Assembly: GCA_017381475.1 (NCBI GenBank)
Contig: JAFOCD010000081.1
Location: 1,792-65,791 of the forward strand
Source of the DNA: Bacteroidaceae bacterium
GTDB taxonomy: Bacteria > Bacteroidota > Bacteroidia > Bacteroidales > Bacteroidaceae
DNA length: 64,000 nt
Direction of reading: 5' to 3'
Within the stretch, counting starts at the first letter, position 1; each line of letters opens with the position of its first letter. Below the pieces are notes generated by a model, which saw only the letters and a list, made by a program, of their open reading frames with translations, was not told where the DNA came from and searched no databases. Below, in pieces: positions 20,450 to 63,775 of this stretch. The position numbers and the translations under genes were made by a program.

Positions 20450-22012
20450 TCAACTACCAAGGAAGTTGCCATCGGTATCGTAATAATGACGCGTCACAGA
20501 GTTGTCATCGTTTTCCAATTCGCACACGAATATGCCCATGTCACGATGGTACAGAATATCATCATACCTAGCCTTCACAACGACATTGCCCGTGGCATCA
20601 TAAACGCCACACTTCATATTCCGTTTCTCAACAAGAAAGAACCCGCCCCCCAAATGAACGATTTTATCATAGGCACATTTCAACACCTTTTTTCCATTTT
20701 TGTCATAAAGCCCACACTTGCACCTCTTCCGCGTACACCTGTAAGCGATAAACATTTCGTCGTCTGGTATCAGCACCTCATCATATCTGCACGGAACAAT
20801 AGTCTTGCCAGTCACATCGACAATGCCATATTTTTCCCCGAGCATTCCCTCCTTACAGACCTCAAGCAGACAGCCGCGATGCTGGAGCACATCATCATAC
20901 CCGCACGGAACGACCATATTCCCAGCTATGTCAATACATCCATACTTGTCATCAATGCCCACAACAGCAAACCCATCAATAAAATCCTCGGCATAATCAT
21001 ACACAAAAGGAATAGCACAATTGTTATCCTTGTCTATAAATCCCCATTTACCATTATGTTCCACAGCTGCATGCTCATCACTAAAACCTCTCGCGCAATC
21101 ATACATAAAAGGTATAATCTCCTTGCCGTCCTTGCCAATAAAACCCCACTTGCCATCCTTTTTCAAAAGCAGCATACCGTCATAAGCCACACGATGACCA
21201 TCATATATGCAAGGTATAACCTCCCTGCCCCGCTTATCGACATATCCAATCTTACCATCCGCTTTCACCCTGGCCATGCCGTCATCGAAAGTAGAGAGAG
21301 AAAGATCGTATTTACCGCGTGGCAAAACCTCGTTGCCTTGCTTGTCAATCGCAGCCCATAGCTCAGTTTCCCCTTCACGAACATAAACACGCGCAAGACC
21401 ATCATTGAATGCAAAAGCCCCATCATATATATATGGAACAACCTCTTTACCCTGTTTGTCAACATAGCCGAACTTACCGTTTTCCAAACCTCCGATATGA
21501 GCCACAGCAACCCCTTCGGAGAAATTAAGTTCGCAATCATATACACAGGCAATAACTTTATTGCCTTCCCCATTGATTACTCCCCATTTACCATTAAGGC
21601 ACACCGATGCCAGACCATTATCAAACCTCGAAACATCATCATATATGCATGGCACGACTACCTTGGCTTCTTTATCAATAAATCCATATTTTCCATTCAA
21701 TTTAACCGAAGCATACCCATCGTAAAAATCAAAGATATAATCGTACATACAAGGAGCCACCTCATTGCCGGAAAAGTCAATCAATCCCCATTTTTCCGTT
21801 TCAGCACCAAGTACCTGCACGAAAGGATTATGCCCATAATAATCGATTCGTATATATTTACGGGCAAGTTCCAACCGTTTTTCCATTGACAGTTCCAACA
21901 AAGGGCTCTTGGCATTGGGATTATACAGACGCGTATCATTTGCGCCATATCCGCAAACGACAGAAAACAAGCAAAAGAGCACGTACAGTAATGCGAATTT
22001 ATATTTCCTCAT
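20450..22012 (-). CDS. WG-repeat (KWG) beta-propeller-like secreted protein
   Basis: There are about 12 tandem units of the form GKWGFIDKxGKEVIPxxYD (e.g. GKYGFIDKEAKVV, GKWGVINGEGNKV, GKIGYVDKRGREV). A signal-like N-terminus begins at MRKYKFALLYVLFCLFSVV. The alternative upstream start is at 22036. Confidence 0.8.
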   Translation of the reverse strand: MRKYKFALLYVLFCLFSVVCGYGANDTRLYNPNAKSPLLELSMEKRLELARKYIRIDYYGHNPFVQVLGAETEKWGLIDFSGNEVAPCMYDYIFDFYDGYASVKLNGKYGFIDKEAKVVVPCIYDDVSRFDNGLASVCLNGKWGVINGEGNKVIACVYDCELNFSEGVAVAHIGGLENGKFGYVDKQGKEVVPYIYDGAFAFNDGLARVYVREGETELWAAIDKQGNEVLPRGKYDLSLSTFDDGMARVKADGKIGYVDKRGREVIPCIYDGHRVAYDGMLLLKKDGKWGFIGKDGKEIIPFMYDCARGFSDEHAAVEHNGKWGFIDKDNNCAIPFVYDYAEDFIDGFAVVGIDDKYGCIDIAGNMVVPCGYDDVLQHRGCLLEVCKEGMLGEKYGIVDVTGKTIVPCRYDEVLIPDDEMFIAYRCTRKRCKCGLYDKNGKKVLKCAYDKIVHLGGGFFLVEKRNMKCGVYDATGNVVVKARYDDILYHRDMGIFVCELENDDNSVTRHYYDTDGNFLGS

Positions 22013-55041: not shown

Positions 55042-56307
55042 TCAGTTGCGTTCAAGGCCGGAATTTACACGGTGGACACCAAGCAACCTGTCTGCCCTGT
55101 CACCGAACCCTCTGTAGTACATATATATAAGGTACTCATTTTCGGTATTGTAGAAGTTACCCTCGGCCGGATAATTTTCGGCCTTGCCCGAGTCTGTCGG
55201 CACCCACACATATATGTAGTTGTATACACCAAGTTTCAATGGGAATGAAACCCAATAGCATCCCTCCTGATAATCATACATGAGATCACTGAATACATCA
55301 AATCCATTACCATAGAAATCCCCAAGAAGGTAAAAGTCACCACCTTCACGATAGGGCATATCAAGTGTGAAGATGACATTTGCATAATCGGCCTCAATTT
55401 CACTCCCATACCCCTCCAGAGTGTTGATATAATAAAGTCCATTCTCATCGCGATAGTTCGAATGTGACACACGGGATTTGTCCTTATGCAGGAACACAAT
55501 ATTCCATCCTTTATCATCGTAAAGTACTTCATCAATTCCCTCTCCCGGCGAATAAGGATCGGTAAATTCAAAGCGGCGGTACTCATTTCCGGCATCGAAT
55601 ATAAGACGGGGATTATGCGTATATTCCACCTTATCACCGGTAATGTAGGTTGGAGTTATCCCCATGACACAATTGTCGCGACGACGATTCTGATAGACAA
55701 CCGGTTTCAGTTCGCTCGCAGGCGATGTCACAAAGGAAGGATAACCGACAGTAATGGAGAGCTGCTGATGTCCCTCATTGAACGAGATATCGGTATCACC
55801 ACTGACCTTGACATCAAAAGAGAGCAACGGTTCCACCACCGAGAATTCAAAAACTGCAACCGGAGCTTCATCCTCGACTTCGTCATCAAATACCTCTATG
55901 CGATAATTGCCGGATGCTTTAAGAGAAACATCATCGTTGGGAATTGTAAATTGATAATGGGTATACAACACTGAGGTATTTACAGAATTCTCCCAATCAT
56001 CAATCACAAAATCATTGAAACCATCCAGATAATCCATTTCCAAAAGATCGGACTGTTCCCAATCGCTATTGCAATGTACTATGCGACAGGTGTAGCGGTG
56101 ATATACATGGTCCATTCTATCAAAAGAGAAACGCAGTACATCATCACTGCCAAGCAGCATCACAGGAGGCTGACCCCACTCATCATTCAGCACCATCTGT
56201 GGAGTGCTTATTTTTAGCAAAGGCGAGCGGGAAAACTGTGCATTTGCAGCCACCGCAAAAATCAAGAATAAATATGTTATTACACGCTTGAACATCATTT
56301 TATGCAT
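55042..56307 (-). CDS. DUF5103-like secreted protein (family annotated as T9SS plug-domain protein)
   Basis: It has a signal peptide (FKRVITYLFLIFAVAANAQ). The family was recalled from the motif pattern (RFSFDRMDHVYHRYTCRIVHCNSDWEQS) and was not searched. A -7 box at 56316-56323 suggests the real start is one of the ATGs at 56298 or 56295. Confidence 0.5.
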   Translation of the reverse strand: MHKMMFKRVITYLFLIFAVAANAQFSRSPLLKISTPQMVLNDEWGQPPVMLLGSDDVLRFSFDRMDHVYHRYTCRIVHCNSDWEQSDLLEMDYLDGFNDFVIDDWENSVNTSVLYTHYQFTIPNDDVSLKASGNYRIEVFDDEVEDEAPVAVFEFSVVEPLLSFDVKVSGDTDISFNEGHQQLSITVGYPSFVTSPASELKPVVYQNRRRDNCVMGITPTYITGDKVEYTHNPRLIFDAGNEYRRFEFTDPYSPGEGIDEVLYDDKGWNIVFLHKDKSRVSHSNYRDENGLYYINTLEGYGSEIEADYANVIFTLDMPYREGGDFYLLGDFYGNGFDVFSDLMYDYQEGCYWVSFPLKLGVYNYIYVWVPTDSGKAENYPAEGNFYNTENEYLIYMYYRGFGDRADRLLGVHRVNSGLERN

Positions 56308-56378
56308 TTATCAAGCGAAGATAAGCATTTAAAAACAATATTTTCGTATCTTCACGCAATTTATGACATTATAGCACC

Positions 56379-57227
56379 ATGAAAAACATATTCACCACCA
56401 TTATCCTGACACTGCTGCCCATAGCAGCAATGCCACAAAAAGCAATATATACAAGTGCTGACAGCATAAGGATTGAACAAATCCTGCATGGTGCAAATAA
56501 CGCAATGCCATCCACCACCGGCGAGCGCATCATATCCATTGCCCATGAATTCATTGGCGAAAAATATGTTGGTGGAACGCTTGAACATGGTGGCGAGGAA
56601 CCGCTGTTCATAAGCAGCACGGAACTCGACTGCACTACATTCGTGGAACTTGTTCTTGCAATTGCAAAAACCGCCAATGACGGAAGCCTGCAGTTCACTG
56701 ATGTATGCAGCAACCTTGAAACCATACGCTACCGCAACGGCAGGAATAATGGATACACAAGCCGACTGCACTACATCAGTTGGTGGATAACGGACAGCGC
56801 AAAAACAGGGGTTATAGAAGAGATAACATCACAAATCAGCAACAAGAAGCAACAGCTGGGACTCAACTTCATGAGTACCCATCCAAGCAACTACCCAATA
56901 CTCGCTGAGTATCCCGAATATATAAAAGAGATTGAACAGTTGGAAACACCCTACCGTGACGTTGAAGCCCACTACATTCCCAAAGAAGATATTGACTACG
57001 CGGGACACAAGAATATAAAAGCCGGGGATATCATCGCAATAACGACATCTATCCCCGGGCTCGATGTAACCCACATGGGCTTTGCCTATTATACAAACGA
57101 TGTGCTATATCTTATGCATGCATCCAGTGGAAAAGGAATGGTCATTAAGGATAGCATACCGTTGCGCGACTATCTTGCAAACAACAAGCGCCATACAGGC
57201 ATCAGGGTATTCAGGACCTGTTTTTAA
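56379..57227 (+). CDS. DUF1460-like (N-acetylmuramoyl-L-alanine amidase-like) secreted protein
   Basis: 282 aa with a signal peptide. GEKYVGGTLEHGGEEPLFISSTELDCTTFVELVLA resembles the DUF1460 core. The call is from memory only. Confidence 0.5.
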   Translation: MKNIFTTIILTLLPIAAMPQKAIYTSADSIRIEQILHGANNAMPSTTGERIISIAHEFIGEKYVGGTLEHGGEEPLFISSTELDCTTFVELVLAIAKTANDGSLQFTDVCSNLETIRYRNGRNNGYTSRLHYISWWITDSAKTGVIEEITSQISNKKQQLGLNFMSTHPSNYPILAEYPEYIKEIEQLETPYRDVEAHYIPKEDIDYAGHKNIKAGDIIAITTSIPGLDVTHMGFAYYTNDVLYLMHASSGKGMVIKDSIPLRDYLANNKRHTGIRVFRTCF

Positions 57228-57229
57228 TT

Positions 57230-59425
57230 CTACCACCAGGAATATCCTCTACAGCATGAGTACCTGCGCGACAACGGGTCATGATCATACAGATAATCGC
57301 ATGACCCTTTTACAAGTTCGCCCATATCCGTATTTGGGTACTTTGTGGCAACCGTCTCAAAATTGTACAGTTCGTAATGCATCTCAGCAGCCACCTCATC
57401 GTCCGTCACAATATCAAAGGCTGTCTGCAACAACTGCTCGACCCTGGTCGTCGCCGCCTGCGTATATTCATCACGTACCCAATCCCTCTTCTCGCATACC
57501 TGTCCATAATATACTTCACCGCAATAGTATTGCGTGAGAGGCCAACAGAAATCGAACGAGCTCCTTATTCCTATTGCCAGTTTCATCATAAGCCGCCCCT
57601 TACGGTTCGGATCGGCAACGCCGGCAATCTCTTGCTCCAAAGAATGCATCTCACGGGCAAAATCATACTTGAAATCGTCCTTATGTCCAATATACTTCCT
57701 GGCTGCGCAGAAGGGGTCATATTCAATATAAAGATTATGGTGGTGCTTGTATGCGTCGGAAATGCGTCCAAAATGTTCCAAAGCATCGCCATAACGCATA
57801 TTGCGCAGATACTGAGTTCCAAGTATATCATTCAAATAATCACTATTGGTGTAACCACGTTCATTGAGGAACTTGTCAAAACCTGATTCAGAATGCCATA
57901 CATTATTTACATATTCGGCAACCACATCGACACCCAACGTATCAATCATTTCAAAAAAATGGTTAGAATAATCGTATCCATTGAAATATTCCGCAGAATA
58001 TCTGTACGCTGACATTGAATATATATCATCCGAATCATAGTAATCGCATACTACCCTATCTACAAGTCCAAGTTGTCTATTATCTGCCATATTCGCAAGT
58101 TGTAAAGCCCTTGTAGTCTTGCCCTCCTTAATCATTCTTGGGCAAACCTCTGCAAGTAAAATCTTGCGCATTGCCTTGTTCCAATACTCCGGGTTATCGG
58201 TATGTTCGGGCACTACTCCTTCGCGGACATCCTCAGTCATACTCTCACAGATTTTTGCATCCAGCCATTCCAATTGGTGATACAATTTATTCTCATAAGC
58301 CGAATTGTATGGTTGCTGTTGGGCGTCAATATATATCCTGAGAACCTTTATCGATTCATCAATAAAATCCGAAGACTTACTTTTCTCGGCCCTATCCAAC
58401 AATTTCGAAGCATTTGTCAAATCACCGGCTTGTTCATACACAAAAGCCGCCGCATAGTACCACATTGCCGGATTTTCGGTTTCACGATGTACTGCTGCTG
58501 CAAGACATATGGAAATCACTCTTCTATCCTGCTCTGTCATCCTTTTCTCATACCCCCAGTTATTTGTCCAGTCACAGCCCGGGACGAACTCTGAATCAAG
58601 TTCATAAAATCTTATGTATGACTGCAATGTCTCTAGTACATATTTGCTGTTCGGCGCATATTTACACACCATCTCAAGAGCATCAACTGTTGAAATCTCT
58701 TCATTTCCCCGTCCAAGACAGAAGAGCATTGAGTTCACATCGCCTAAACGCGCGAAATATTCCAAAGCCTTTTCCGAGTGATTCAAACGGTATTCAGCAC
58801 CGGCTATATACGGCATAATCATCTGACGCATCAGATTTTCCTCGGGCAAGAGAGCCACCTCATCCTCCCACAGTCTAACACATTCTTCAAACTTCGACAT
58901 TGAGAACAGAGCCCTCACAGCCTGCAATAGATATCTATCCCTCAACCTCTCATCGGTCTGCGCCAGAGCCTTTTCGGCAACCTCCTCTATCGTCATATCC
59001 ACGCCTGTTTTCATTGTAGGATAATACCAACGTGAGTTCAGTTTAATACGTATATATTCATTGGTCTTGGCCAGGAGTAAAAAATCAAGGATAGCTGTAT
59101 CTTTTTTAGTAATCCACTCAATGAAACTGTTGTCATAAGACACTTTCGTATTGTCGGCAATAGTCCTAAACTCATCCCATGACATCCTGTACACGACATC
59201 ATATATATCATCTACCGGAATATCATCAGAGGTCAGTTTTTGCCACTCCTCACAGTTTCTTGCCGAATTCGGATAAGCACCGTTCGCAGCCACCCCTGAT
59301 TGAGGTTCACATATACGGAACAAATGATATCCGCTTGGCGTATACCAATGAGGGCCGCAGGCACATGCATCATAAACCACTGTCAGCAACACAACATTAA
59401 TAAGAAAGTATCTTAGAGATTTCAT
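57230..59425 (-). CDS. Secreted helical-repeat (TPR-like) protein, 731 aa, unknown function
   Basis: The start is trimmed to MKSLRYFLINVVLLTVVYDACACG (ATG at 59425). This overlaps the upstream gene by 29 nt. The body is rich in helix-pair segments, and I recognise no catalytic motif. Confidence 0.6.
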   Translation of the reverse strand: MKSLRYFLINVVLLTVVYDACACGPHWYTPSGYHLFRICEPQSGVAANGAYPNSARNCEEWQKLTSDDIPVDDIYDVVYRMSWDEFRTIADNTKVSYDNSFIEWITKKDTAILDFLLLAKTNEYIRIKLNSRWYYPTMKTGVDMTIEEVAEKALAQTDERLRDRYLLQAVRALFSMSKFEECVRLWEDEVALLPEENLMRQMIMPYIAGAEYRLNHSEKALEYFARLGDVNSMLFCLGRGNEEISTVDALEMVCKYAPNSKYVLETLQSYIRFYELDSEFVPGCDWTNNWGYEKRMTEQDRRVISICLAAAVHRETENPAMWYYAAAFVYEQAGDLTNASKLLDRAEKSKSSDFIDESIKVLRIYIDAQQQPYNSAYENKLYHQLEWLDAKICESMTEDVREGVVPEHTDNPEYWNKAMRKILLAEVCPRMIKEGKTTRALQLANMADNRQLGLVDRVVCDYYDSDDIYSMSAYRYSAEYFNGYDYSNHFFEMIDTLGVDVVAEYVNNVWHSESGFDKFLNERGYTNSDYLNDILGTQYLRNMRYGDALEHFGRISDAYKHHHNLYIEYDPFCAARKYIGHKDDFKYDFAREMHSLEQEIAGVADPNRKGRLMMKLAIGIRSSFDFCWPLTQYYCGEVYYGQVCEKRDWVRDEYTQAATTRVEQLLQTAFDIVTDDEVAAEMHYELYNFETVATKYPNTDMGELVKGSCDYLYDHDPLSRRYSCCRGYSWW

Positions 59426-60374
59426 CGTCGGTATAATTTTTAAATTGTGAATAATCCAAATGGTATAGAATATTTCCCCTTGCAGGCTTGCCAATTTTCT
59501 GTTCAACAAGTTCCTTGACACCAAGTATCGTGTATATGTTTGGGCGTTCGTTACGGATATATTCATTGCCGGAGATTTCACGGCTACCATATGGTACAAT
59601 CGACACAAACTTATTGTCTGCAAACTTTACACCCCAACTAAAGATAGGGTAGGCATAATCAAGCGGCATTGGATACTCCGTCGGCTTGACATATGTTTCA
59701 ACCACATCATAACTGAGGATTGAATTTCCGGTACTCGGGTTTTTTAGTGAACCTGTATTATACAGCATGAGCACACCACAATCGGCCGGCGGAGGGGTTT
59801 CGCGCAACTGATGCAACCTGATGGTTATACTCAGCGAAATACCCTTTTCGTGCAACAAATCCTTCACCGCGCCACAAAGTTTGTTATAACTATCCTTTGT
59901 TGTACCTGTCCAGTCACAATCAAGTTGTAGCTCATTAATTTTGCCACACTCATTATAAGAGCACATCGCCAGCATACGTTCAACAATGAGTGGAGCCATT
60001 GCAGACTCATAACCAGCCATTTCCCTCAATGCCTCTATTGTGATATAAGTAACCGGCACTATCTCCACTCCATCCGGAATAGGAGAAATGAATTGCGTGG
60101 TTGCGTTTGGAACCACATCCGTTACACCGTTAAGGAAATCGTGTTCCGGCACAACATCGAACATACGCAAATAGATGCGCTTGATATCATGTTCTTGCAG
60201 GAATGCCGTTTCAGCAGAATCCAAATCAAAGACAGTTCTCCAGTAATAGATTGAATTCACTTTTTCCGGTTCGTCAGCATGCGCCTCGGACTGAGGAGCA
60301 GCTTGATGTCCGCACGAGGACAAAGAGGCAACATATGCAAATGCCACAAGGATCTTAAAGAAATATTTCATCAT
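59397..60374 (-). CDS. Lipoprotein, 325 aa, unknown function (possible TIM-barrel glycosidase-like fold)
   Basis: MMKYFFKILVAFAYVASLSSCG carries the lipobox LSSC. An alternating beta/alpha-like pattern is present, and the segment ELQLDCDWTG is reminiscent of the GH18 DxDxE strand but has Thr in place of Glu. Confidence 0.6.
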   Translation of the reverse strand: MMKYFFKILVAFAYVASLSSCGHQAAPQSEAHADEPEKVNSIYYWRTVFDLDSAETAFLQEHDIKRIYLRMFDVVPEHDFLNGVTDVVPNATTQFISPIPDGVEIVPVTYITIEALREMAGYESAMAPLIVERMLAMCSYNECGKINELQLDCDWTGTTKDSYNKLCGAVKDLLHEKGISLSITIRLHQLRETPPPADCGVLMLYNTGSLKNPSTGNSILSYDVVETYVKPTEYPMPLDYAYPIFSWGVKFADNKFVSIVPYGSREISGNEYIRNERPNIYTILGVKELVEQKIGKPARGNILYHLDYSQFKNYTDDEISKILSY

Positions 60375-60441
60375 ACAATTTTTATTTACCTATACAAATT
60401 TCAACAAAAAAAATCGTACAGCCGAATGTTTTTGTCCCGAC

Positions 60442-60473
60442 TGTACGAAATATACTCCAGAGTGTATGAAATG
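60442..60473 (-). promoter_or_regulatory. Operator B: direct repeats TGTACGAAATA-N10-TGTATGAAATG (21-bp phasing) upstream of the lipoprotein operon
   Basis: Direct reading places the repeats at 60442-60452 and 60463-60473. The proximal repeat lies 40 bp from a -7-like box (plus-strand CAAATTTC at 60395-60402), which is the same geometry as operator A. Confidence 0.65.
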
Positions 60474-60497
60474 ATAAATTGGTCTGTTTGAATAGTT

Positions 60498-61436
60498 CTA
60501 TTTTCTGCGCCAAACAATGTAACTTGTATTCTTGGGCATCCTTCGCCTGCCCTTGTAATAGTTATCCTCTCCGAACTCATGCACCACGCCTTCGCCATCT
60601 ACAGCCCATCCATAGGCCGACGAGCCGACAAGATAGACAGCCTGGTCCACGCCCAAGTCTACCAGAGCCTGCGAAAAGTCATGGAACGACTCCTTGGAAC
60701 CAGTCTCTATCATAAAGATTTCACCGTCACGATCACATATTGACCTCCTGATAGCCTTGCCTTTTGGTTCGTTCTCAACCACTTTGCCATCACTGACCAA
60801 AGGATATTGGCGGAAGAAATAACCGCCGTGCCCGGTAGCCTGTTCAAACAACGGTGAGTTTTCGGCAACGCCAATGGTCACAACACCATTTATTGAGGCA
60901 CAGTATCCTTTCTTGGATATTCCCCAAGCAAGAGGCTCTCCATTAAGCACAAACGCCCCGACAATACCACCGTTGTCAGCTCTCACATCGGCAGCTTGTG
61001 CCGCATACACAACCGTGGTGTCATTTTTATCCATTCTGCCAATATGCAAAGACATCTCGGCATTATGCGGTATATACAATTTAAGCGGAACATCGTTTAT
61101 TAATGTATCCTTTATTTCAACAAACCCCTTCACCAAGGAATCGACACTATCACCGAAATATTGCTTATTCAACATGTCAGTTTCCATTTCTGCAGACATT
61201 GCAGGTTCTTCCGGTTCAAACAGAGCCGGCTCCACCTCTTTTGAAACATCAACAGTCTTTGGAGGCACCGTCGTATTTTCCTTTCCACCAGCGGCAAGGA
61301 AAAATATGACAGTTCCGACAACAGCAAGAATAACAGCAATTACAATTATCTTTCCTTTGCGAGACGAAGTCTTTTTATAGGGCGTATCACCAATTACGCG
61401 AATCTGGTCATCCCTTATATCTTCATATTCCTTCAT
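60498..61436 (-). CDS. Single-pass membrane protein with periplasmic DUF2233 / phosphodiester-glycosidase-like domain
   Basis: 312 aa. There is a cytoplasmic N-tail of about 30 aa and a TM helix (IIVIAVILAVVGTVIFFLAAG). The C-terminal RRSICDRDGEIFMIETGSKESFHDFSQALVDLGVDQAVYLVGSSAYGW resembles the NAGPA-family core (R.aiG...dG.l.lv..dg...G.sl.ela..l..lG...AlnLDGGGS) but has a degenerate last motif. Confidence 0.55.
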   Translation of the reverse strand: MKEYEDIRDDQIRVIGDTPYKKTSSRKGKIIVIAVILAVVGTVIFFLAAGGKENTTVPPKTVDVSKEVEPALFEPEEPAMSAEMETDMLNKQYFGDSVDSLVKGFVEIKDTLINDVPLKLYIPHNAEMSLHIGRMDKNDTTVVYAAQAADVRADNGGIVGAFVLNGEPLAWGISKKGYCASINGVVTIGVAENSPLFEQATGHGGYFFRQYPLVSDGKVVENEPKGKAIRRSICDRDGEIFMIETGSKESFHDFSQALVDLGVDQAVYLVGSSAYGWAVDGEGVVHEFGEDNYYKGRRRMPKNTSYIVWRRK

Positions 61437-61438
61437 AA

Positions 61439-61801
61439 CTACCTGATCTCCTTTTCTATAAATTCCTTCAACTCCTTCAAGGCCTCTTTAGATGCAGTGA
61501 CGGCATGACTAAATGACTGCACATCCGAGAGCACCAATTTTTGTTTAGGAATATTGATATAACTAATGTAAGAACGATTTATAATCAAGCTCTTACCAAT
61601 ACGGATAAAGATATTTCCCTCGCTACCGAGCTGTGAGGATATCATCTTCTCTATTTGCCCCAACTGATATGACAGCACATGTTTTTCATTATCGGCCAGC
61701 ACCAGTGTCGAGTAGTTTCCGTCGGCCAAAATATAGACAACCCTGTCCGGCGCAACGCGCACCAGATCAATTGTAGTCGATATTATCAGCTGTTTCTTCA
61801 T
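61439..61801 (-). CDS. Stand-alone LytTR DNA-binding domain protein (no receiver domain)
   Basis: 120 aa. VRVAPDRVVYILADGNYSTLVLADNEKHVLSYQLGQIEKMISS...FIRIGKSLIINRSYISYI follows the LytTR pattern. Its stop is 2 nt from the start of the membrane-protein gene. Confidence 0.8.
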   Translation of the reverse strand: MKKQLIISTTIDLVRVAPDRVVYILADGNYSTLVLADNEKHVLSYQLGQIEKMISSQLGSEGNIFIRIGKSLIINRSYISYINIPKQKLVLSDVQSFSHAVTASKEALKELKEFIEKEIR

Positions 61802-61825
61802 CCGACCGGTTTATTTTACTAAGGG

Positions 61826-61833
61826 CAAATTTA
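61826..61833 (-). promoter_or_regulatory. -7 promoter box (TAAATTTG on minus strand) of the LytTR operon
   Basis: The plus strand reads CAAATTTA, 25 nt upstream of the LytTR ATG. A possible -33 TTTG element (plus-strand CAAA) lies at 61853-61856. Confidence 0.55.
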
Positions 61834-61872
61834 GGAGAGTTGACGCACACTGCAAAACCATTTGCCTGGCAA

Positions 61873-61904
61873 TGTATGAAATAGTCTTCATAGTGTATGA
61901 AATA
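61873..61904 (-). promoter_or_regulatory. Operator A: direct repeats TGTATGAAATA-N10-TGTATGAAATA (21-bp phasing) upstream of the LytTR operon
   Basis: Direct reading places the repeats at 61873-61883 and 61894-61904. They are identical 11-mers, and the proximal one is 40 bp from the -7 box. Confidence 0.65.
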
Positions 61905-61928
61905 AGATTTTATACCCGAAGTACATTC

Positions 61929-62873
61929 CTATTCCTTATTCTTATATAGACGTTTGCGCCCCTTTTCACGAATTCTCTCACGCTCTTCATAGCCGGCACG
62001 GGTACGTTTCCAGCGGTTATGCGTCCATAACCACAACTCAGGATTCTCCTTAATTTCTTTTTCGAGCAGTTCATAATAGCGATTCGTAGGTTCAAATTGA
62101 GCCATCTTTGAAGCATCCTCGGCAAAAAGTTCAAAGTGTGCCGTATAATAACCGCGTTTAACCCGCTTCATTCTAACAAAGAAGAGAGCTGCTTGTGTGC
62201 GTTGGGCTATTTTCTCAGTTCCAGTAAACACAGGAGTGTCGCGATGCAGGAAATCAACCCAATGATTGATAGACTCCCAAGTAGGCACTTGATCTGCTAC
62301 AAAACCAATAAGATACTTTTTGTTCTCTTTTGTTATCTGCACTATTCGACGCAACGTATTGGCCATTGTTATTGATTCTGCCCCGAACTGATCACGCATT
62401 TTCTTCATCAAGCGGTCAAAGAACTTGTTTTCGAGCGGATGATAGATATCGCCTACAACCAAATCCTTTTCATCAAAATACAAACCGAGAGATGTCACAT
62501 ATTCCCAATTGAAGAAATGTCCCATGTAGCAGACACACGAGCGACCTTCGGCAACAACACGATGAGCATCCTCAAGACCTGTAATCACCATTCGCTTGCG
62601 TATTTTCTTCTCGCTCATTCCATAATACTTTATCATCTCCACAAACCAGTCGCAGAGCGAAGAATAGAATTTCCTCTCAATCTTCTTTATCTCTTTCAAG
62701 CTCTTTTCCGGGAATGACTTGAGCAGATTTTCACGCACTATTCTACGACGATATCGTACCAGATAATATACGACAAAATACAAGAAATCCGATATGAGAT
62801 ACAGGATGAAAAATGGAAGCTTGTTCAGCACGAACAGCACCGAAACCGCAATGTAGTAGAGAATCTTTTTCAT
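61929..62873 (-). CDS. Lipid A biosynthesis (LpxL/HtrB-type) lysophospholipid acyltransferase family protein
   Basis: 314 aa with an N-terminal TM. YLVRYRRRIVRENLLKSFPEKS and GHFFNWEY (the HX4D/E-type region) are typical of late acyltransferases. Confidence 0.7.
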   Translation of the reverse strand: MKKILYYIAVSVLFVLNKLPFFILYLISDFLYFVVYYLVRYRRRIVRENLLKSFPEKSLKEIKKIERKFYSSLCDWFVEMIKYYGMSEKKIRKRMVITGLEDAHRVVAEGRSCVCYMGHFFNWEYVTSLGLYFDEKDLVVGDIYHPLENKFFDRLMKKMRDQFGAESITMANTLRRIVQITKENKKYLIGFVADQVPTWESINHWVDFLHRDTPVFTGTEKIAQRTQAALFFVRMKRVKRGYYTAHFELFAEDASKMAQFEPTNRYYELLEKEIKENPELWLWTHNRWKRTRAGYEERERIREKGRKRLYKNKE

Positions 62874-63067: not shown

Positions 63068-63775
63068 TTATTCCAATGTTCCGTTTTCTGCCGATTCAAT
63101 CATTTCAGCACTGGCATACATAAAGATTTCAACGCGACGGTTCTCAGCACGACCGGCAGCAGTAGCGTTGTCAGCTACAGGCTGTTTTGATCCAAAACCC
63201 TCCACACTCTTAATCTGCTCCTCTGAAACACCCTTAGAGAGCAGGTACTCTGCAACAGCCTTGGCACGGTTTACAGAGAGGGGATTGTTGATCATGTCGT
63301 TACCGGTTGAATCTGTATGTCCATATACCACGACATCAGCATCGCTATACTCAACAAGCACCTTAGCAAACTCTGTAAGATTCTCCTTTGCAACCTTGTT
63401 CAAAGTATACTTATTTGTCTCAAAAAGCACACCAGAATCAAAAGTAACCTTCACTGCAGTAAGATTATTTGCATCTGTAATTGTCTGCACAGTCGCATTC
63501 TCAACCTGAGCGGCAGCCTCGGCTGCATTATCCATTCTCTTACCGATTAGTGCACCAGTTCCTGCTCCAACAGCTGTACCTACAGCCGCACCCACAGCTG
63601 TACCTACAGCTGTATTGCCAGTATATTTACCAATGAGAGCACCAATGAGAGCACCACCAGCTGCACCACTGGCTCCACCAATCACACTACCCTTCGCCAA
63701 GTTACTCCAAGTTCCACAACTTGATAAGATAAGCGCAGAACAAAGTACCGCGCAAACAGTCTTTACAGATTTCAT
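63068..63775 (-). CDS. OmpA-family lipoprotein with glycine-zipper N-domain
   Basis: 235 aa with the lipobox LSSCG. A Gly-zipper is present (GGASGAAGGALIGALIG...GTAVGAAVGTAVGAGTGALIG). The C-terminal OmpA-like domain shows VVVYGHTDSTG...NNPLSVNRAKAV...NRRVEI. Confidence 0.85.
   Translation of the reverse strand: MKSVKTVCAVLCSALILSSCGTWSNLAKGSVIGGASGAAGGALIGALIGKYTGNTAVGTAVGAAVGTAVGAGTGALIGKRMDNAAEAAAQVENATVQTITDANNLTAVKVTFDSGVLFETNKYTLNKVAKENLTEFAKVLVEYSDADVVVYGHTDSTGNDMINNPLSVNRAKAVAEYLLSKGVSEEQIKSVEGFGSKQPVADNATAAGRAENRRVEIFMYASAEMIESAENGTLE

Follow-up and report, generated by a model that had tools for sequence, protein, structure and literature searches.

This analysis concerns a 64-kb stretch (the window) of the genome of a Bacteroidaceae bacterium (GCA_017381475.1, contig JAFOCD010000081.1, positions 1,792-65,791) and two pairs of direct repeats that precede two adjacent sets of genes in it. 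The first set is made of a gene encoding a 120-amino-acid (aa) regulator consisting of a LytTR domain only (61439..61801) and of a gene encoding a 312-aa membrane partner (60498..61436), the start of which abuts the LytTR stop. After a gap of 123 nucleotides (nt) comes the second set, which encodes a 325-aa lipoprotein (lipo325, 59397..60374) and a secreted TPR-containing protein of ~732 aa (57230..59428), identified from its open reading frame (ORF) and by Pfam, whose gene overlaps the end of the lipoprotein gene. The ORF upstream of the LytTR gene encodes a lipid A-type acyltransferase (62873-61929), and every gene around both repeat pairs is on the minus strand.

Upstream of the LytTR gene, the plus strand reads TGTATGAAATA at both 61873-61883 and 61894-61904, and upstream of the lipoprotein gene it reads TGTACGAAATA at 60442-60452 and TGTATGAAATG at 60463-60473; the corresponding -7 boxes are CAAATTTA (61826-61833) and CAAATTTC (60395-60402). 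In the coding orientation the repeat unit is YATTTCRTACA, and each site takes the form YATTTCRTACA-N10-YATTTCRTACA, followed by 39 nt and then by the box TAAATTTG for the LytTR operon or GAAATTTG for the putative target operon. The site in front of the LytTR gene, referred to below as the class A (putatively autoregulatory) operator, is composed of the distal repeat TATTTCATACA (61894..61904) and of a proximal repeat of the same sequence followed by TT (61873..61883). The class B (putative target) operator is composed of the distal repeat CATTTCATACA (60463..60473) and of the proximal repeat TATTTCGTACA followed by G (60442..60452). All the coordinates of these repeats and boxes had been given in a first-pass annotation of the window and every one of them proved right on direct reading, as did the 21-base-pair (bp) start-to-start spacing in both pairs and the equal distance from operator to box, the proximal repeat being separated from its box by 39 nt in both operons.

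The motif TGTAYGAAATR, the plus-strand form of the unit, has four exact matches in the window when 0.25 are expected, a number reached in none of 100 shuffles, and these four matches make up the two 21-bp-phased pairs in the two intergenic regions. A 32-nt composite of the site, searched with up to three mismatches, was found twice (0.00 expected). Copies with one mismatch were present elsewhere in the window at chance level (10 against 6.1 expected), so TGTAYGAAATR is not a dispersed repeat, and a miniature inverted-repeat transposable element (MITE) was rejected on the same ground. The concern that the 11-mer might be a common repeat unrelated to these genes was not borne out in the window, where exact copies are found only at the two operators. 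The two 39-nt stretches between operator and box are identical at 13 of 39 positions (10.1 +/- 2.7 in shuffles) and hence unrelated, which agrees with the first-pass annotation.

Conservation of the repeat pairs in Bacteroidales

The comparison covered 80 metagenomic loci (659 kb in total) that encode relatives of the 312-aa partner with 53-79% identity. Every locus covering the junction has the partner gene immediately after the LytTR gene, and in most of the 80 loci, representing ~50 distinct sequences, an operator is found ~95 nt upstream of the LytTR ATG, the position of class A being kept. The architecture upstream of LytTR in these sequences consists of a variable distal ATTTnRTACA, a near-invariant ATTTCATACATT 21 nt further on, a -33 TTTG, 19 nt, and TAnnTTTG, the distal half-site being the more variable of the two. 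The class B operator is conserved as well, since homologues of lipo325 are preceded by the operator in 17 of 18 distinct sequences, including genes located 2-4 kb from the LytTR pair. When all distinct half-site pairs in the 659 kb were considered, 60 of 62 had the 21-bp spacing and the remaining two were spaced by 42 bp (a triple repeat) and by 56 bp; no pair was present on the opposite (non-coding) strand. The TTTG of the -7 box is found at the identical offset of 39 nt in 86 of 91 distinct operators. The repeats and both spacings (21 bp and 39 nt) are therefore conserved in the orthologous intergenic regions. The 11-mer of the first-pass annotation is present in the window as it was described, but the core shared by the orthologues is only ~9-10 nt long, (A)TTTCRTACA, and the first Y is not conserved. 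Three tandem half-sites with a 21-bp period were also observed upstream of LytTR in loci L002 (403-455) and L118.

The bare pattern TTCRTACA-N12-TTTCRTACAK was then scanned against one genome per species (185,579 species, 596 Gbp), which returned at least 120 stretches. About half of the matches listed fell by chance within coding regions of unrelated phyla and have no -7 box, and the promoter-like ones among those listed came almost all from Bacteroidales, namely Prevotella, Alistipes, Parabacteroides, Barnesiella, Coprobacter, Paludibacteraceae, Muribaculaceae, Dysgonomonadaceae and metagenome-assembled genomes (MAGs) assigned to 'Bacteroidaceae'. Most of the promoter-like matches listed were located inside loci with LytTR and partner homologues (36-82% identity), and the scan also retrieved unlinked targets encoding lipo325 or an alpha-2-macroglobulin (A2M). 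Because loci encoding LytTR and its partner were retrieved with the pattern alone, the element travels with the LytTR regulator across Bacteroidales. The repeats are almost certainly a functional cis-element.

Two promoter classes and a hairpin in the target promoters

The housekeeping promoter consensus of Bacteroidetes is a -33 TTTG separated by 19-21 nt from a -7 TAnnTTTG. A consensus of the same TTTG/TAnnTTTG type was used in the survey of LytTR systems by Zou et al. 2018 (PMC6193735, Table 3). The promoter of the LytTR operon fits it, with a -33 TTTG (61853..61856), located 16 nt after the proximal repeat and 19 nt before the -7 box TAAATTTG (61826..61833). The target promoter has the box GAAATTTG (60395..60402), the first base of which is non-canonical, and TCGG where the -33 TTTG would be expected; this predicted promoter fits with activator dependence. 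Both boxes are found where the first-pass annotation had placed them, but the second is not a canonical TAnnTTTG, and the two promoters, which had been treated alike, fall into systematically different classes. The -7 box begins with TA in all 53 distinct LytTR promoters and with GA or CA in 51 of 63 distinct target promoters. The -33 TTTG is confined to the LytTR class, where it is found in 25 of 53 distinct promoters, most others having TTGx or TTCC; the target class has no -33 element. With its canonical -33 and -7 elements, the LytTR promoter should show basal expression and positive feedback, and the target promoter, with no -33 and a weakened -7, should be activator-dependent. A scan for sigma-70 promoters gave matches at chance level, and the sigma-70 model is irrelevant for Bacteroidetes.

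Examination of the 39-nt gap in the target class uncovered an inverted repeat and a T-tract that fill it, a conserved feature that was missed in the first-pass annotation. In the window, the minimum free energy fold of the sense strand is a hairpin at 60414..60448 with a 12-bp stem (UCGUACAGUCGG...UCGGCUGUACGA), in which 60448-60437 pairs with 60425-60414 around a loop of 11 nt. It is followed directly by U8 (60406..60413), a tract whose orthologue consensus, GATTTCTTTTT, stops just before the -7 box. The left arm of the hairpin overlaps the 3' part of the proximal half-site (CGTACAG) and the right arm is located at the -33 position.

Covariation was examined in 38 distinct target promoters, which are related sequences and were picked by the identity of the downstream gene and not by structure. 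In a helix of 14 pairs, 82% of the cells are paired, compared to at most 44% when one arm is shifted against the other by 1-3 columns, and 46 double-sided changes were counted against 19.7 in shuffles, with none of 500 shuffles reaching 46. Several different inner-stem sequences are present among these promoters, and a single stem pair accounts for eight GC-to-AU switches. The right arm is not conserved in sequence in divergent lineages; a third, inverted LytTR half-site was considered as an explanation for its conservation and rejected, as the covariation indicates pairing. On the sense strand, G-U pairs are frequent (69) and A-C pairs are rare (15), which points to a sense-strand RNA as the folding species and not to a palindrome read by a protein or to an antisense transcript.

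In its predicted form, the element has the features of an intrinsic (Rho-independent) terminator, that is, a G+C-containing hairpin followed by a U-tract on the transcribed strand. A simple terminator scanner had missed it because the 11-nt loop exceeds the 8-nt limit of the scanner, and an Rfam search of 60200-62100 retrieved no known RNA family. Targets that carry the hairpin are almost always found 13-140 nt downstream of a co-directional ORF, and the sites with no in-register hairpin include those that have no such ORF upstream. Judging from its sequence and position, the hairpin with its U-tract is most likely an intrinsic terminator that would insulate the activator-dependent promoter from read-through. 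The hairpin would be absent from the LytTR-driven transcript, since it lies upstream of the predicted start. In Alistipes-type loci (L052, L061, L075, L124), the autoregulatory promoter also has a hairpin but with another layout, CCCGCAGCC-ATTTCATACATT-GGCTGCGGG-ATTTTTTGAC, with the proximal half-site in the loop and a T-run that merges into the -33 region.

The LytTR protein, its partner and the predicted regulon

The Pfam family PF04397 covers residues 13-115 of the 120-aa protein with 39.4 bits (cut-off 22.6 bits, E=7e-10), and neither a transmembrane (TM) helix nor a receiver domain was found in it by domain analysis. Its homologues in Bacteroidales are 76-94% identical, and the LytTR proteins found with an unchanged half-site 50-94%. 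The conservation of the protein matches that of the half-site, which supports LytTR as the binder. The partner has a single predicted TM helix (residues 26-49) between a 25-aa N-terminal tail and a conserved periplasmic NAGPA-like domain. In the homologue alignment the tail has invariant M1, E3, R8-R13 and G16, and since a basic patch precedes the TM helix the N-terminus should face the cytoplasm. The NAGPA match in Pfam (24.3 bits) is just below the cut-off of 25 bits, the family being annotated on many homologues, and the partner family comprises more than 4,000 homologue clusters. Homologues of both proteins are annotated only generically in databases. No PDB sequence match was found for LytTR, the partner or lipo325, and NCBIfam likewise gave no match, either for A2M or for the four window genes. 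Neither the window neighborhood nor the orthologous loci have a histidine kinase gene, and the orthologous loci share no other regulator gene in the neighborhood.

No Pfam or NCBIfam match was found for lipo325. Its AlphaFold2 (AF2) model is confident, with a predicted local distance difference test (pLDDT) score of 88.4, and Foldseek aligned this GH18-like TIM-barrel fold with the spore-cortex lytic enzyme SleL and with GH18 chitinases (E down to 1e-7, TM-score ~0.5). The invariant motif of the family is LQLDCDWT, which we take to keep the DxDW of the GH18 signature DxxDxDxE, with a Thr where the catalytic Glu would be. On the basis of this model, lipo325 may be lectin-like or a non-canonical enzyme.

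Downstream of the operators that do not precede LytTR, the lipoprotein/TPR pair was found at 41 sites and an A2M lipoprotein (~1,815-1,832 aa, with bMG3/5/6/10 and an A2M bait region) at 36 sites. A protein with TPR and aspartyl-protease domains was found at four sites, and WG-repeat lipoproteins, an M23 peptidase and a DUF1848 protein at one to a few sites each. All the targets are exported or envelope proteins. The lipoprotein and TPR genes are paired in all the loci with the lipoprotein that reach far enough, and in loci L113, L167, L168 and L189 the 8 kb fetched contain a target but no LytTR gene. The first-pass annotation had proposed a two-operon regulon. This cannot be established from 64 kb, and in relatives the operator also precedes A2M, TPR/aspartyl-protease, WG-repeat and M23 genes; the unlinked targets and these further operator-preceded genes point to a regulon that is trans-acting and wider than two operons. 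No alpha-2-macroglobulin gene is present in the 64-kb window.

Several other observations were made in and around these loci. Some human-gut lineages (L003, 6908-8425; L029, 5075-8061) have extra genes between the partner and the next operator that encode a 505-513-aa protein of no assigned family, a 127-aa protein and a DUF1810+HD protein, and that apparently extend the autoregulated operon. In some rumen Bacteroidales (L095 and L138, both from MAG RGIG3337, and L091, L098, L140), operator-like pairs of the form ATTTCGTACA-N11-ATTTCATACATT precede other genes, encoding proteins of 362 and 246 aa; the boxes there are canonical TAnnTTTG and a hairpin is lacking. These sites may be further regulon members or may belong to a paralogous LytTR system with the same half-site. 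The window itself encodes a 520-aa WG-repeat protein (20450-22012, minus strand) with no operator nearby, and WG-repeat lipoproteins are placed under the operator in L070, L149 and L199. Other envelope genes flank the locus (55042-57227 and 63068-63775), none of them with an operator; the flanking genes encode a plug-domain protein of the type IX secretion system, a glycine-zipper lipoprotein of the OmpA family and an AmiA-like (DUF1460) amidase, whose gene converges on the TPR gene.

A predicted LytTR activation system, its alternatives and its relatives

The first-pass annotation took the repeats for operators of the adjacent LytTR protein. The conserved cis-element, its LytTR-type geometry and the gene linkage all agree with this, and the binding itself we infer: the repeats are very probably bound by the 120-aa protein. 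One LytTR domain would occupy each (A)TTTCRTACA half-site, the 21-bp period placing both domains on the same face of the helix ~50-80 nt upstream of the start (half-sites centred at ~55 and ~76 nt), with starts predicted ~7 nt downstream of the -7 boxes. The bound protein would activate a Bacteroidetes sigma-A-type promoter, the -7 box of which is located 39 nt past the proximal half-site. The upstream site would drive the LytTR-partner operon, with basal expression and positive feedback, and the downstream site would drive the lipoprotein/TPR operon in an activator-dependent manner. The hairpin and its U-tract would stop read-through from the basally expressed LytTR-partner operon, so that the target would stay silent until LytTR acts.

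How the regulator might be controlled is suggested by the LytTR Regulatory Systems (LRS), in which 9-bp direct repeats 11-13 bp apart are found just upstream of the -35 element, the regulator activates its own operon and a membrane protein acts as inhibitor (PMC6193735). By analogy, the conserved cytoplasmic tail of the partner is an obvious candidate for holding the regulator, which would be kept inactive through this N-terminal tail and released when the periplasmic NAGPA-like domain senses an envelope cue. The signal could be envelope or peptidoglycan damage, or protease attack, but this is speculation drawn from the target set. The complete model, with an activator, an anti-activator and an insulating terminator, is at best probable, a little less so than the binding, and what it proposes for the partner is its least secure point.

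The system resembles most closely the LRS of Streptococcus mutans (HdrRM, BrsRM and three paralogues; Zou et al. 2018, PMC6193735). Both have a small soluble LytTR-only regulator and a co-transcribed membrane protein, both have direct repeats with a period of ~21 bp upstream of their own promoter and of the target genes (here a 10-nt core and an 11-nt spacer, within the repeat size and spacing described for LRS), and both would share a logic of basal inhibition and positive feedback. They differ in phylum and promoter type (Bacteroidetes -33/-7 here), in half-site (ACCnCTTAn in S. mutans, TTTCRTACA here) and in targets (bacteriocin and competence genes in S. mutans, envelope proteins here). 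In addition, the partner described here crosses the membrane once and has its large NAGPA-like domain in the periplasm, and the embedded terminator-like hairpin of the target promoters is found only here.

An 'LRS-like' operon, Btheta7330_RS19920/RS19915, has been reported in B. thetaiotaomicron and B. ovatus, with 11-bp direct repeats 11 bp apart and a TGTA-19 bp-TAnnTTTG promoter (PMC6193735). It likewise belongs to Bacteroidales and has direct repeats upstream of a TAnnTTTG promoter. However, its membrane protein (NfeD-like + DUF2154) gene comes first and its LytTR regulator has TM segments, whereas here the regulator is soluble and encoded first; its repeat TCCGGTATTCA, located 11 bp from the promoter, is also unrelated. 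The supplements of the LRS paper (PMC6193735) contain no Bacteroidales system of the present architecture, and our literature searches on LytTR in Bacteroidetes or on this partner family retrieved no description of the system.

Regulators of the AgrA, ComE, BlpR and PlnC type also use a LytTR domain, ~9-bp direct repeats with a 12-bp spacer upstream of -35 and autoactivation of their own operon, but they rely on a phosphorylatable receiver domain and a histidine kinase, neither of which is found here, the 120-aa protein having no receiver and the locus no kinase gene. DanRI of uropathogenic E. coli provides a Gram-negative example of a LytTR-only regulator (122 aa) antagonised by the product of the adjacent gene (bioRxiv 10.1101/2025.06.10.658900). 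In that case the antagonist DanI is a small zinc-finger protein where a membrane sensor would act here, and DanRI apparently has no autoregulatory feedback (bioRxiv 10.1101/2025.06.10.658900). A functional analogy can also be drawn with extracytoplasmic function (ECF) sigma/anti-sigma pairs, in which a cytoplasmic transcription factor shares its transcript with a protein that crosses the membrane once, with a short N-terminus on the cytoplasmic side and a sensor domain on the other. Autoregulation and envelope targets are found in these pairs as well. The regulator here would instead be a LytTR DNA-binding activator working on a housekeeping-type promoter and not a sigma factor.

Several points weigh against our model. 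The elements, their geometry, their conservation, their linkage to the LytTR gene, the class differences and the covarying hairpin are observed, but the functions of the system (what binds the repeats, the direction of regulation, the task of the partner and the signal) are all deduced from sequence, and since the orthologous sequences share phylogeny, the counts of distinct sequences overstate their independence. The repeats of LRS lie 4-11 bp upstream of the -35 element (PMC6193735), compared to an invariant gap of 16 nt to the -33 here; as the Bacteroidetes -33 cannot be fully equated with a -35 hexamer, the discrepancy is of about half a helical turn. Pfam, NCBIfam and PDB searches revealed no similarity of the partner to the S. 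mutans LRS membrane proteins HdrM (DUF2154) and BrsM, although systems with unrelated partners have been accepted as LRS (PMC6193735), and its own AF2 model is poor (pLDDT 44 from a 25-sequence alignment), too low for a fold search. In Bacteroides pyogenes (L201, 9800-10000; L203; L045), an IS66-family element is located ~430 nt upstream of LytTR. There, a different sequence has taken the place upstream of the -7 box and the autoregulatory operator is absent, but the target operator and hairpin are intact and the LytTR-partner pair is also kept; displacement of this operator by the IS66 element indicates that autoregulation is dispensable in at least one lineage. The complete B. pyogenes genome (L202) has a second insertion sequence downstream of the partner, where the other two records have the lipoprotein/TPR genes. 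Finally, geometry alone does not identify the binder, since some AraC-type activators also work on direct repeats spaced by 21 bp.

The fact that this spacing is not unique to LytTR domains would allow a different factor encoded elsewhere, AraC-type or another direct-repeat binder, to act at the repeats with the LytTR gene as a mere target. We consider this improbable, as the operator travels with the LytTR-partner operon in Prevotella, Alistipes, Parabacteroides, Barnesiella, Coprobacter, Paludibacteraceae and Muribaculaceae, the half-site is constant where LytTR stays 50-94% identical, no other regulator gene is conserved nearby, and self-operators are a defining feature of LRS (PMC6193735). 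Marginally less improbable, but still unlikely, is that LytTR binds the repeats as a repressor or roadblock, or activates one promoter and represses the other. The proximal half-site of the target overlaps a structured element, and the inverted partial core copy CTGTACGA at the -33 position could in principle offer a third, repressive contact. However, the sites lie wholly upstream of -33 in a fixed helical phase, which is the classical position of an activator, the target promoters with no -33 and a weakened -7 look activator-dependent, and the right arm that holds this copy covaries with the left arm and loses its sequence in divergent lineages, which favors pairing over recognition by a protein. 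The characterised LRS regulators are, moreover, activators (PMC6193735).

The hairpin and U-tract that come immediately after the proximal repeat, with their sense-strand G-U bias typical of a transcribed element, could also be read as a 5'-leader attenuator if the repeats themselves were the core promoter of an alternative sigma factor with a start just after the proximal repeat. This is highly unlikely, because -35 and -10 elements do not look like two identical direct repeats, the LytTR promoters have a canonical -33/-7 downstream of the repeats and the targets keep the -7 offset (86 of 91 distinct operators), the loci encode neither a sigma factor nor an anti-sigma factor, and the hairpins correlate with a co-directional upstream gene, as would be expected of a read-through terminator. 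An ECF sigma promoter was likewise considered and rejected. As for a chance resemblance or a locally duplicated segment with no regulatory function, the presence of only two sites in the window is in its favor, but this reading is already refuted to our satisfaction by the shuffle expectation of 0.00, the unrelated 39-nt flanks and the order-wide conservation of the element and its geometry, and we give it next to no credit.

Activation by the LytTR protein is thus the explanation that we retain. Bacteroidales are the dominant Gram-negative order of the gut and rumen, and their envelope stress signalling is known mostly via ECF sigma factors; LRS have been characterised mainly in S. mutans. 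We know of no described regulation of a bacterial alpha-2-macroglobulin, and our literature searches retrieved nothing linking this protein to LytTR or to Bacteroides. What would be new here, as predicted from the comparisons above, is an order-wide conserved regulon, its link to bacterial A2M and a composite promoter module, even if the proposed biochemistry would not surprise LytTR specialists. One conserved 31-nt operator of rigid geometry ties together a LytTR-only regulator, a putative membrane sensor family and a small set of periplasmic proteins that includes A2M, and its motif can be used for the genome-wide prediction of a testable regulon. The target promoters also offer a natural example of a predicted terminator integrated into an activator site. 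It is conceivable, although we put this forward only tentatively, that the system is an order-wide response to envelope damage, in which a membrane sensor with a phosphodiester-glycosidase-like domain would free a LytTR activator, and the latter would induce a periplasmic defence and repair set (A2M, the GH18-like lipoprotein and its TPR partner, an M23 peptidase and WG-repeat lipoproteins) through promoters that have a terminator fused to an activator half-site.

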